Source: Sulfurimonadaceae bacterium (GTDB taxonomy: Bacteria > Campylobacterota > Campylobacteria > Campylobacterales > Sulfurimonadaceae). Taken from it: 34,161 nucleotides of DNA. Where the stretch lies: positions 1 through 34,161 of the forward strand of contig JBFFUI010000023.1 in the NCBI GenBank assembly GCA_041571435.1, given 5' to 3'. Shown piece by piece: positions 33,001 to 34,161 of this stretch. The position numbers are program-made. How positions within the stretch are numbered: the stretch's first letter is position 1; the number at the start of each line of letters is the position of its first letter.

Positions 33001-34161
33001 ACAAACGCCTCGCCATCCCGACCGAGGACCATGCACTGGAATACGCCGATTTTGAAGGGAGTATCCCGGAGGGGGAGTACGGTGCCGGCAAGGTGCTCAT
33101 CTGGGACAGAGGGAGCTTCGAGAACCTTTCGCACGACGGCGAAGCACCGGTCTCTCTGGAAGATGCCTACGACAAGGGGCACATCAGCTTTGAACTCCAC
33201 GGTCAGAAGCTGCACGGCAAATTCACCCTGGTCAAGACCCACTACAACCACGACCACAACTGGCTGCTGCTCAAACACCACGACGAGATCACGAAAGAGA
33301 TGCCCTTCTCGGTGCAGTCCGGCAAGCGCATCGAAGAGCTGTAGCCAAAGGTAAACGGCATTGCTATAGTATAGGATTTCAGTTGTCAGAGTAAGTGATA
33401 AGCGTTTTTTTATGGATGCGGTGGAAGAAAAAAAAGGATGCCGCTTTATGCAGCATCCCGGAAGCGCTCTGCTTCCTGCGGCGGTTTATGGTCCCAGGCG
33501 GGTGCCTAAGGGCACCTTGTAAGAGGGCCTTACCCGAAGGGGCATAGGCCGCGTCATTGTCGCAAGCCGTCGAGCGGTGCGACGTTTCAGGATAAGAAAC
33601 GGGTCTGCCAGCCCTCTTGTCTGTGAATGCTGAAGCGCATAGAGCCTCGCAACAGATGGCGCATTGTCGTGCGCCACCTTGCAGTAAACCTGCATCGACC
33701 TGCCTTCAGCTCTTCACAGAGACCATCTTACCTGTTCACCCGATCCATCATCGCTCCTTCAAGCAATCCCAACTCTCTATTAGGGGTTGTTTCCATCAGC
33801 GACTCCAGACCCAAAACCGCCAAAAAAGCGTTTTTGTATCATGGGCTTCCTTTTCAGGTACCTCGTCTATAGTAGTACGTACTTAAGAACCAGTATAGAT
33901 CGCTCTTCATAAAAAAAGTATTAAGAAAAACAGTCAGTGTCAAAGTGCCTGTTTTTGAAAAAGGAAAGTGTTGTTTCGGTTTTGGTGCACAAAAGCAGAC
34001 ACTTCGCCTGGGATTTGCCACAGTTTTGATGCCGATAGAAGCTCTTTTAGGCGTTCTATCCCTGTTGATAGGGTAAAATTCCGCAGAAGGAATTCCATGT
34101 TCAATTTTGAAGAAATTTTTAGTCTGATGGATGTCGGGATCACTGTCTATGAACCGCTCGA

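Follow-up and report, generated by a model that had tools for sequence, protein, structure and literature searches.

Is the structured RNA gene near the end of this contig simply a folded RNA, or is it also built to be read by ribosomes? The stretch of DNA that was analysed, here called the window, is the entire 34,161-nt contig C23 of the Sulfurimonadaceae genome G000. The genome-wide survey's note had placed in it a single-copy gene on the minus strand for a large RNA, and we recover that gene at 33862-33428, as one copy of about 435 nt in the 2.16-Mb genome. The reading we put first, to which we would give a little short of an even chance, is a stand-alone, elaborately folded RNA family that is also built for ribosome loading, i.e., a translation-coupled, 'dual-function' RNA.

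Boundaries, expression and family of the RNA gene

The gene and its transcript are delimited by the following features:

33428..33862 (minus): accumulated RNA, about 435 nt, from the fold, the alignments and the RNA-library contigs
33459 to about 33435/33436 (minus): terminator hairpin of 10 pairs, followed by a U-run to 33428 (33435-33428)
33892..33897 (minus): -10 box TATACT of the RNA promoter, a TAnnnT-type hexamer across loci
33875..33882: invariant palindrome GTACGTAC, located at the putative transcription start or immediately downstream of it
33863..33885 (minus): putative 5' leader of about 20 nt, trimmed off the accumulated RNA, from the position of the -10 box relative to the contig ends

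Homology between genomes is bounded at about 33424-33933, with the upstream limit at about 33925-33933. An own promoter and an intrinsic terminator had been proposed for the gene, and both stand. The -10 hexamer (TATACT, TATCAT, TATTAT, TAAGAT or TACTAT) lies 6-9 nt 5' of GTACGTAC in 26/26 loci with sufficient upstream DNA (27 listed), and GTACGTAC itself is present in all 26, in GC-rich and AT-rich forms alike, 13-16 nt 5' of GGUACC or 11-14 nt 5' of AAAGGAAGCC. The sequence of the terminator hairpin is conserved among relatives, in many of which the U-run that follows it is interrupted. The RNA had also been called GC-rich, which holds in direction and is mild in extent (54.4%, with 51.8% in the window and 47.7% genome-wide).

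On its 3' side the RNA faces a convergent LigD_N gene (32880-33344, plus strand), and the gene on its 5' side is divergent. A conserved promoter and terminator between convergent and divergent neighbours are also what an independent transcript of the dual-function kind would have, and this RNA gene is transcribed on its own and conserved in structure. In size and conserved fold it does resemble ornate leaders; that it serves a neighbouring gene as a cis-acting leader or riboswitch is nevertheless extremely improbable, being contradicted by a gene order in which the RNA ends in a terminator before a convergent gene, the other neighbour points away, and the adjoining genes change entirely from one family member to another.

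Contigs from RNA libraries of four studies map to 33450-33862, which bears out the earlier claim of expression; these are contigs rather than stranded reads, and come from relatives 80-99% alike. None was found on 32700-33434 or 33876-34161, an absence that we do not count as evidence. Contigs from two studies end at 33858 (X6) and at 33857 and 33862 (X13), and both X13 contig ends continue directly into adapter letters. GTACGTAC lies 13-16 nt upstream of this RNA-library 5' end. Because the conserved -10 box is too far upstream for a start at 33862, the transcript is probably trimmed: the accumulated 5' end at 33862 is probably a processed one, with the start about 20 nt upstream. The 5' end predicted earlier thus agrees with where the contigs end and, judged by the conserved promoter, probably not with where transcription begins.

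The palindrome occurs 16 times in the genome, and no other of these sites lies behind a -10 box with the layout of an intergenic promoter. The AraR box consensus, as given in the available part of PMC1950556, includes GTACGTAC. A GntR-type (AraR-like) operator was rejected: PF00392 finds no GntR-family gene in this 100%-complete genome, and the same search was positive in 12/14 reference genomes used as a control.

That the RNA belongs to no Rfam family was upheld at each setting used. Rfam 15 (4227 models) gave no match to the whole window at the gathering score; at E<=10 the interval 33200-34161 gave two chance matches, both off the RNA body; and at E<=1 the RNA of seven further family members was likewise unmatched. 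Both RNase P RNA and tmRNA were rejected: the genome's own RNase P RNA lies at C6:5559-5888 (252.8 bits) and the RNA has no RF00010 match, and ARAGORN finds no tmRNA in the window, the genome's own being at C36:1209-1587 (137.1 bits). A literature search on structured non-coding RNA in Sulfurimonas found nothing relevant, the available part of PMC3847290 included, nor did one by title and abstract on noncoding RNA in Campylobacterota metatranscriptomes. This is a previously undescribed structured RNA family.

Confinement to part of the Sulfurimonadaceae was confirmed as well. BLASTN finds the RNA in 16/201 family genomes and 6/23 genera; a scan for the invariant 5' motif finds it in 19/201 genomes and 8/23 genera, with no match to a reversed control pattern. 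Three genomes hold two copies, and decayed fragments were found as well (G064b, G084/L043). Motif scans of species-representative genomes, metagenomes and viral contigs yielded true members solely from Campylobacterota, pattern matches in other phyla lacking nhmmer confirmation. Among 151 genomes of the order, a covariance model of the 5' domain, R1, found, weak matches apart, only the window's own copy.

A covarying multi-helix fold

The minimum free energy of the RNA is -178.1 kcal/mol (z = -4.92), and none of 100 shuffles was equally stable. We examined the structure in an independently built alignment of 16 copies with a consensus of 90 pairs. Compensatory change was seen in 26 of these pairs, and 94.9% of the cells were paired, against 35.4-45.8% when the partners were slid; in 4 of 5 measures, 0/500 shuffles reached the observed value. 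An extended model holds 113 pairs, 32 of them compensatory. The multi-branched fold reported earlier is thus reproduced, and the RNA folds into a closed multi-helix domain, with long-range helices between nt 41-49 and 376-384 and between nt 132-140 and 336-344. Its main elements are:

33844..33862 (minus): 5' hairpin P1 (GGU/GCC and CCU/AGG), which contains the Shine-Dalgarno-like AAGGA; MFE and consensus folds
33814..33822 (minus): long-range helix P2, 5' strand UGGCGGUUU, partner 33479-33487
33479..33487 (minus): long-range helix P2, 3' strand AAACCGCCG, closing the central domain; consensus and extended models
33738..33812 (minus): P3 sub-domain GGGUCU...GAUCGGGU with two inner helices; helices 3-5, with 3 compensatory pairs
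33723..33731 (minus): helix 6, long-range, GUAAGAUGG/CCCUCUUAC, 5' strand; 3' strand at 33519-33527
33713..33720 (minus): helix 8, UCUGUGAA/UUCACAGA, 5' strand; 3' strand at 33620-33627, extended model
33460..33476 (minus): helix 15, the 3' hairpin GGAAGC...GCUUCC

P2 changes from CG to UA and from UA to CG, and the P3 helices are kept with other letters in AT-rich relatives. Helix 6 has 10 pairs, 2 of them compensatory, with 93% of cells paired; the corresponding values are 8, 4 and 84% for helix 8, and 6, 2 and 99% for helix 15. For P1, covariation speaks neither for nor against the hairpin, since its 5 pairs are invariant or vary on one side only. A GAAA tetraloop with an 11-nt receptor, spotted by eye in the window's copy, was set aside, neither part being conserved across the alignment.

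To our knowledge, bacterial RNAs of this size whose fold is backed by covariation make up only a few classes, and each of these has opened a line of work. The present RNA is like OLE, ROOL, GOLLD, raiA and HEARO in its length of several hundred nt, its covarying multi-branched fold, its taxon restriction and its presence in RNA libraries. It differs from them in that their Rfam models do not match it and, from the OLE-type large RNAs, in that no neighbouring protein gene is conserved family-wide. We know of none among these five classes with a canonical start site and a maintained open frame.

Start site and open frame within the fold

Two further features, at the extreme 5' end of the RNA, bear on whether ribosomes engage it:

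33839..33853 (minus): invariant AAAGGAAGCCnAUGA, read as a ribosome-binding site and start codon (AUG 33842-33840), in 24/24 aligned 5' domains
33780..33842 (minus): putative short ORF of the window's copy, 20 codons and UAA, shortened by a 1-nt insertion in a T-run

AAAGGAAGCCnAUGA is invariant in the 24 aligned 5' domains and in all copies found, and the rest of the domain has about 75% column identity. The layout AAGGAAGCC-n-ATG also precedes ordinary reading frames elsewhere in the same genome. Consistent with a start-site reading, R1 cross-matches the starts of ordinary genes: in the 151 genomes it gave 19 weak matches, at 21-28 bits, and the 9 examined were ordinary reading-frame starts. 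Judged by sequence, AAAGGAAGCCnAUGA is thus an ordinary ribosome-binding site and start codon of the host.

At least 36 codons are open after AAAGGAAGCCnAUGA in 22 of 25 distinct full-length copies. The frame has 42-45 codons in 18 copies, 36-37 in four and 33 in one, and 20 in the remaining two, the window's own (G000) and that of G045. Counted by lineage, at least 36 codons are open in 13/15, against 18% of such windows elsewhere in the same RNAs; the P of about 1e-9 for the open frame is naive because the lineages are related. Stops make up 8/149 of the U-starting codons in frame 0, versus 52/183 and 46/183 in the other frames, a contrast that comes in part from stops which conserved motifs spell by chance in frames 1 and 2. 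AT-rich lineages keep 42-43 codons open despite 3-5 stops in each other frame.

The open frame runs across the 5' strands of the long-range helices. P3 falls entirely within the ORF region of the relatives, and the stop codon of their ORF is located in the 5' strand of helix 8 (UCUGUGAA/UUCACAGA); two thirds of the covarying fold falls outside the frame, beyond the stop codon. The absence of codon periodicity that had been reported was essentially reproduced: substitutions at codon positions 1, 2 and 3 number 2610, 2811 and 3059, and the synonymous share of codon differences is equal across the three frames (0.139, 0.105 and 0.136). Compensatory changes in the helices rewrite the peptide, and those residues that are conserved map onto conserved RNA motifs. 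From these comparisons, the encoded peptide is not conserved and is under no purifying selection. G000 and G045 both have a broken frame, even though their RNAs are 93% alike to each other, and since the window's own frame has only 20 codons, it is the RNA fold and not the peptide that is kept. The earlier statement that the RNA is not coding therefore needs to be divided: it agrees with a peptide that is free of purifying selection, and it is at odds with a canonical start site and a frame that is open in most lineages.

Against this background, the chief rival is that the RNA is purely non-coding, a large orphan comparable to OLE, ROOL or raiA; we regard this as possible, though clearly the less probable account. 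The motif that resembles a ribosome-binding site would then be a stabiliser against 5'-to-3' decay or a binding site for protein or RNA, and the open frame a by-product of sequence constraint and shared ancestry. Strong covariation throughout, the frame region included, argues for such an RNA, as do the lack of purifying selection on the peptide and the 1-nt indels that shift or cut the frame in 7/25 copies, the window's among them. So does the motif itself, whose 14 nt are more invariant than is usual for the start sites of orthologous genes and partly paired in P1; that P1 pairs the AGG of the ribosome-binding site also counts directly against the ribosome-loading reading. Contig ends at the foot of P1, in addition, fit trimming back to a protective hairpin. 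What a non-coding RNA does not explain is that stops are depleted in frame 0 alone, that AT-rich lineages hold the frame open amid stops in the others, and that the motif has the host's ordinary start-site layout.

5' stabilisers of this sort are found in bacteria with RNase J, as in STAB-SD and the ermC leader, where an SD-like sequence or a 5' hairpin has this role. The likeness here is an SD-like sequence and a hairpin at most 20 nt from the accumulated 5' end, with contig ends at the foot of the hairpin. The difference is that conservation here extends to an AUG and an open frame of about 42 codons, and that the RNA downstream is a conserved fold rather than an ordinary message.

If the frame is taken at face value, the RNA might instead be a message whose product is a small protein or secreted peptide of 42-45 residues and whose long, structured 3' part serves stability or regulation. 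The start is canonical, the frame is open and the stop lies at a single alignment position; some AT-rich copies (e.g., L078, L082 and L021) have beginnings like those of signal peptides, and the gene starts cross-matched by R1 are rich in K, I, L and F, signal-peptide-like by eye rather than by a predictor. The equal synonymous share in the three frames, the coincidence of conserved residues with RNA motifs, the rewriting of the remainder by compensatory changes, the broken frames of G000 and G045 and the two thirds of conserved, covarying structure past the stop codon make this improbable.

Short frames overlaid by long-range pairing are known from hok and aapA1, which are stable, structured toxin mRNAs. 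A type I toxin-antitoxin-like system, in which a stable folded toxin mRNA of this kind has its translation blocked by long-range pairing, would account for a structured transcript with a short frame, and would suit the patchy distribution, the duplicate copies in three genomes, the decayed fragments, and the restriction, Abi, Fic and CBASS genes that are found near the RNA in several genomes. The predicted peptides fit poorly, being charged and not conserved rather than hydrophobic: only 1/25 holds a 17-residue window with a mean hydropathy above 1.6. The sole promoter-like match on the opposite strand (33342-33370) lies beyond the 3' end of the RNA, the start site is at the extreme 5' end, a difference from hok and aapA1, and the AT-rich members sit amid unrelated housekeeping genes. 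We consider this account very unlikely.

The translation-coupled reading, by comparison, takes in both the fold and the frame. Dual-function regulatory RNAs are treated as a class in PMC12612679 and PMC12310071, in the parts of these papers available to us. The present RNA is like its members (RNAIII, and also SgrS/SgrT, SR1/SR1P, AzuCR and VcdRP) in being an independent transcript with a 5'-proximal short frame; a start site and an open frame are seen, with a predicted peptide that is unconserved and, in this copy, of 20 codons. It differs from them in the absence of any Rfam likeness, in the unconserved peptide, and in a frame that overlaps conserved long-range helices, where theirs lies apart from the regulatory part. 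The closest parallel is RNAIII of Staphylococcus, an RNA of about 0.4-0.5 kb that has a promoter and terminator to itself, many hairpins, a short 5'-proximal frame and a narrow taxonomic range, and that is encoded beside a sensor kinase. Size, hairpins and narrow taxon recur here, as does a sensor-kinase gene that lies beside the RNA and co-occurs with it; the kinase here is a cytoplasmic PAS protein and not a membrane peptide receptor.

Co-occurring genes and a proposed role

The survey's note had linked no gene to the RNA, a statement that can be upheld only in part, given two protein genes of the window that co-occur with it:

34097..34161 (plus): 5' part (MFNFEE...) of a gene for a cytoplasmic PAS histidine kinase, which diverges from the RNA gene and runs off the contig end
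31734..32210 (plus): Host_attach/baeRF-1 family-12 protein, PF10116 48.3 bits, PF18856 19.7 bits

The kinase is present in 11/19 genomes with the RNA versus 0/182 without it. At the DNA level its start is 79% identical to the G077 kinase gene, and its N-terminus is that of the full-length orthologues, which have no hydrophobic segment. These orthologues (56-100% identity) occur in 10/201 genomes, all of them RNA carriers, to which the cut copy in G000 is added; the next-best matches have at most 45% identity. In most carriers the kinase gene adjoins the RNA or lies close to it, so that the two may be gained and lost together through linkage and not function.

The baeRF-12 protein is present in 10/19 genomes with the RNA versus 1/182 without it, the exception being G011. 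The gene and the RNA are often on different contigs. In genus g1 it is found in 7/7 RNA carriers and 0/9 non-carriers, and in genus g7 it is present in the sole RNA carrier of 17 genomes. The window's protein is a core-only form of 159 residues; a homologue, P0049, scores 29.4 bits with PF18856, above the cut-off. Among the 19 carriers, 8 have no kinase orthologue and 9 no baeRF-12 protein. The baeRF-12 homologues of other families and other classes lack such an RNA within 10 kb, and outside the family no conserved neighbourhood was found. Searched by sequence, solved structures gave nothing at E <0.05 for the Host_attach protein, and a literature search for baeRF1/Host_attach by name found nothing.

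As far as the available parts of PMC6514570 and PMC10901736 go, the ribosomal A site is where baeRF-1 proteins are predicted, or have been shown, to sit under stress, and no RNA partner is described there for them or for Balon. The likeness of the present case to Balon and the baeRF-1 proteins is one of protein class, the co-occurring protein belonging to Pfam Host_attach and baeRF_family12; it differs in its core-only form and in homologues outside the family that have no RNA nearby.

We infer the biochemical role of the RNA as follows. Transcription would begin at or next to GTACGTAC, and the leader of about 20 nt would then be trimmed to the foot of the P1 hairpin at 33862. Ribosome loading, or translation of the short frame, and the folded state would be mutually exclusive; the folded form would be the active or stable one, and the ribosome would read or reset the RNA. 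With a normal start site and a short frame on a folded RNA, the molecule may be connected with how protein synthesis is controlled, and it might act in a stress or translation-control setting with the PAS kinase and, in many carriers, baeRF-12. A more specific and rather unlikely version is that the RNA, as a ribosome-engaging one, forms with baeRF-12 and the kinase a stress module that parks, senses or resets ribosomes as some 40 sequence-free codons are read into a stable fold, i.e., an RNA component of ribosome hibernation or rescue.

Apart from the kinase, no otherwise unknown protein was common to the RNA neighbourhoods. Several candidate links were rejected. G077 encodes RtcB about 3 kb downstream of its second RNA copy, and PF01139 finds no RtcB in the genome studied here, which removes a link to RNA repair. 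The LigD_N gene is also present in G007, a genome without the RNA, and none lies beside it there. ArfB (NF006718, 185 bits) is found in 65/201 genomes, including 36/54 of the RNA-less genus g17, and is not specific. The RNA was also considered as a substitute for a missing hibernation factor, and this was set aside with two HPF-family genes in the genome.

The same neighbourhoods bear on whether the RNA is part of a mobile or defence element, as guide, template or decoy. Its patchy distribution, duplicates and fragments would be in keeping with this, as would the variable, defence-rich surroundings in g1 and g10 and the many copies near contig ends. No reverse transcriptase, transposase, nuclease or integrase consistently adjoins it, however; searches of viral contigs, plasmid records and phage records gave 0 matches; no flanking repeats were noticed; and in G010 the defence island has been inserted between the RNA and kinase genes and is the partner of neither. 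We judge a mobile or defence role to be quite remote.

Two unusual traits set the RNA apart: a normal start site with a maintained, sequence-free frame laid over conserved long-range helices, and co-occurrence with a sensor kinase and a baeRF-1 family member. If the link is functional, the RNA would offer a testable case in which fold and translation exclude each other, and a poorly understood branch of ribosome hibernation or rescue might gain an RNA partner, in sulfur oxidisers of sediments. Complete genomes exist for several carriers, e.g., G077 and G010, and genetics may be possible if these are cultured.

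Identity and fold of the RNA

The minus-strand sequence from 33862 to 33428, which opens with GGUACCUGAAAAGGAAGCCCAUGA, lies about 300 nt from the end of contig C23, the whole of which forms the window. The elements of the gene used in what follows are:

33897-33892: –10 box of the window copy
33882-33875: palindrome GTACGTAC of the window copy
33862-33428, minus strand: the RNA, about 435 nt
33844-33862: P1, its 5' hairpin
33738-33812: P3, a sub-domain
33459-33435, minus strand: terminator at the 3' end of the RNA, a 10-pair hairpin followed by eight U

The minimum free energy of the stretch is –178.1 kcal/mol (z = –4.92), and none of 100 shuffled sequences was equally good. 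Rfam gave no match in the window at the gathering score, none on the RNA at E<=10 and none for seven diverse relatives; ARAGORN found neither tRNA nor tmRNA in the window, and RNase P RNA and tmRNA were rejected as identities because the genome has both on other contigs. The genome-wide survey's note had called the gene single-copy and foreign to Rfam, and both points hold, with one copy in the 2.16-Mb genome. Its description as GC-rich applies in a mild sense only (G+C 54.4% for the RNA vs 51.8% for the window and 47.7% for the genome).

In our own alignment of 16 full-length copies, RNAalifold gave 90 pairs, 26 with compensatory change. An independent count found 94.9% of cells paired vs 35.4-45.8% with slid partners, and 0 of 500 shuffles reached the observed value in four of five pairing measures, although these scores are biased in favor of a fold that was derived from the same sequences; the survey's note had reported nearly equal values. 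Adding five helices spotted by eye extended the model to 113 pairs, 32 of them compensatory, with 91.0% paired. Certain central helices of the fold are just 70-85% paired. The backbone of the fold, numbered from 33862, comprises P1, a short A-U hairpin (67.5% paired in the alignment), a covarying long-range helix (nt 41-49 with 376-384) that closes the entire central domain, P3, a second long-range helix (nt 132-140 with 336-344), several inner hairpins and two 3' hairpins.

A literature search with supplements outside its scope found no description of this RNA. In looks it is closest to the large orphan RNAs; in way of working the closest would be the RNAIII-type dual-function RNAs. It belongs to neither, every homology test having failed. 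Dual-function RNAs are a documented class (PMC12612679, PMC12310071). The safest statement, in which we have high confidence, is that this is a real and new family of structured RNA; we regard it as an RNA of a new kind.

Promoter and 5' end

In each of the 26 loci whose upstream DNA reaches far enough, the palindrome GTACGTAC occurs unchanged upstream of the RNA. It precedes GGUACC by 13-16 nt or, in AT-rich forms, AAAGGAAGCC by 11-14 nt, and a TAnnnT-type –10 box lies a further 6-9 nt upstream. The segment between palindrome and GGUACC is variable and in most genomes holds no good –10 box. From the conserved box and this box-poor segment we place the putative transcription start at the palindrome or beside it and infer the loss of a leader of about 20 nt. 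RNA-library contigs from two studies end at 33858 (X6) and at 33857 and 33862 (X13), both X13 ends passing straight into adapter letters; these ends hint at leader removal, as contigs that are strandless, come from relatives and belong to libraries that can contain DNA. The palindrome is rare: the genome has 16 sites, and none of the others heads a promoter. Its match to the core of the AraR (GntR-family) box was rejected as an identity because the genome is without any GntR-family gene. Just past the 3' end of the RNA, a plus-strand promoter-like match (TAGCCA-17-TATAGT with TG, 33342-33370) points back across the gene and could be the source of an antisense transcript; one such match was found in this region vs 1.0 expected from shuffles.

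Between genomes, homology stops at about 33424-33437 on one side and 33925-33933 on the other, which delimits a unit of some 510 bp. Among the less likely readings is a mobile or defence RNA; plasmid and phage records gave no match to the RNA.

An open frame within the fold

The 5' motif AAAGGAAGCCnAUGA is unvaried in 24 of 24 aligned 5' domains, and the layout AAGGAAGCC-n-ATG heads other reading frames of the window's genome; by its sequence, the motif is a putative start site. Over 25 distinct full-length copies, the frame from this AUG (33842-33840) runs for 42-45 codons in 18, 36-37 in four, 33 in one and 20 in two, namely the window's copy and that of G045, which have a 1-nt insertion in a T-run. 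The run lies at 33822-33827 (RNA nt 36-41), where the extra T shortens the window copy's frame; it is one base shorter in some relatives' RNA-library contigs (letters omitted at 33822 and 33828). In every copy, the other two frames of the same stretch have 1-6 stops. Stops make up 8 of 149 U-starting codons in the frame vs 52 of 183 and 46 of 183 in the others, and 13 of 15 lineages are open for at least 36 codons vs 18% of such windows elsewhere in the same RNAs. A naive P of 1e-9 is too strong because the lineages are related and some other-frame stops sit in conserved motifs; the counts argue that the frame is kept open. No second frame is common to the copies.

The encoded peptide, judged by its codons, lacks conservation: synonymous changes account for 0.139, 0.105 and 0.136 of codon differences in the three frames, substitutions at codon positions 1, 2 and 3 number 2610, 2811 and 3059, and compensatory helix changes rewrite the peptide. 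An mRNA for a small protein, to which the open frame might otherwise point, is thus a less likely reading. So is a type I toxin mRNA; only one peptide in 25 is hydrophobic over a length sufficient for a membrane helix. The main rival reading makes the RNA purely non-coding, with a start-site look-alike whose only task would be to stabilise the 5' end. Such an RNA would suit the drifting peptide and leave the scarcity of stops to be accounted for, and we consider it somewhat less likely than the coupled reading given next.

The frame passes through the 5' strands of long-range helices, and its stop codon lies inside the 5' strand of a covarying helix, so that translation and the folded state should be mutually exclusive. 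Our tentative preference, held at somewhat below even confidence, is for a translation-coupled, dual-function RNA, probably with a role in stress or translation control together with a PAS kinase and, where present, a baeRF-12 protein. The RNA would be transcribed from the conserved promoter, trimmed to the foot of P1 and folded into the closed domain; a ribosome could load at its 5' end and read some 40 sequence-free codons through the helices, and the RNA would probably act in the setting of these two proteins.

Distribution and co-occurring genes

BLASTN found the RNA in 16 of 201 family genomes (6 of 23 genera), and the motif AAAGGAAGCCnATGA-N15-32-TTTGGGT in 19 (8 genera); the reversed control pattern had no match in the 201, and the motif is absent from the two largest genera (0/54 each). 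The three additional genomes hold divergent AT-rich forms of about 390 nt or, in G084, a 97-nt 5' fragment only. Two full copies, about 2 kb apart and roughly 75% alike, occur in each of G077 and G111, and G064 combines a single full copy with a 3' fragment of about 165 nt. When the motif was run against collections of species-representative genomes and of metagenomes and against viral contigs, members confirmed by nhmmer came from Campylobacterota records only, matches in other phyla being due to chance. With a covariance model of the 5' domain, the sole strong score in 151 genomes of the order was the window's copy (125.6 bits); 19 weak hits (21-28 bits) were rejected as relatives, the nine inspected being starts of ordinary reading frames.

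The neighbours in the window are:

34097-34161, divergent from the RNA: start of a PAS histidine kinase gene, cut by the contig end 65 nt into the gene
32880-33344, convergent with the RNA: LigD-type 3'-phosphoesterase, a stand-alone domain
32238-32720, minus strand: single-domain GAF protein
31734-32213: Host_attach/baeRF-12 protein, also matching Pfam baeRF_family12
31185-31601: ArfB, in the small-gene run beside the RNA (31185-33344)

Within that run, only the baeRF-12 gene follows the distribution of the RNA. The AT-rich members lie beside entirely different genes (MgsA/UPF0047, HAD/phosphoglucomutase, KARI/P-type ATPase, DTW/CNNM). No gene adjoins the RNA throughout the family, so it presumably acts on its own; a cis-leader, which would serve an adjoining gene, is less likely.

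The kinase orthologue is present in 11 of the 19 RNA genomes (10 full, plus the window's cut copy) and in 0 of 182 without the RNA, and the Host_attach/baeRF-12 protein in 10 of 19 and 1 of 182 (G011), counts taken over related, non-independent genomes in which the kinase is usually linked to the RNA. Eight carriers lack the kinase and nine the Host_attach protein. The kinase orthologues have identities of 56-100%; the hits ranked after them, at most 45% identical, are therefore paralogues. The kinase adjoins the RNA in genera g1 and g18, is separated from it by 15-19 kb in g10, with a restriction/CBASS island inserted between the two, and is on another contig in G111, G090 and G095. In g1, Host_attach carriers are exactly the seven RNA carriers (0 of 9 non-carriers); others are two RNA carriers in g10 and the only one among the 17 genomes of g7. 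Often the gene and the RNA are on different contigs. The baeRF-12 homologues of other families and classes share no neighbourhood, and none has this kind of RNA within 10 kb. Core-only baeRF-1 families are described as likely A-site binders (PMC6514570), and Balon, a full-length relative, has been shown to be a ribosome hibernation factor (PMC10901736); neither account mentions an RNA partner in the passages concerned.

Three further candidate links were rejected: ArfB is present in 65 of 201 genomes, the LigD-type phosphoesterase occurs also in a non-carrier, and RtcB, near the RNA in G077, was not found in the window's genome.

The g10 island (L124, G010:C1:1117001-1134000, 1-8500) carries type I restriction-modification genes, a WYL protein and a CBASS set of patatin, a DncV-like cyclase and two unknown genes. 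The decayed copy of G084 (L043 1045-1140) borders directly on a patatin gene; set against G010, the arrangement resembles a deletion of the remaining RNA plus SDR, DUF503 and ArfB genes. That of G064 (L033 9494-9657) adjoins a PEBP-family gene, and the second ('b-type') copy is always convergent with a PEBP/YbhB-family gene (L027, L028, L033, L038, L084); L038 and L084 have an AbiEii gene upstream of the RNA and a Fic gene after the PEBP gene. Contigs end within a few hundred bases of many other copies (G095, G008, G090, L071, L082), which points to a region prone to assembly breaks. A tRNase Z-like metallo-beta-lactamase gene adjoins a DUF434/DUF5616 gene at 26548-28345 of the window, and at locus L130 a tRNase Z-like gene directly follows the Host_attach gene.
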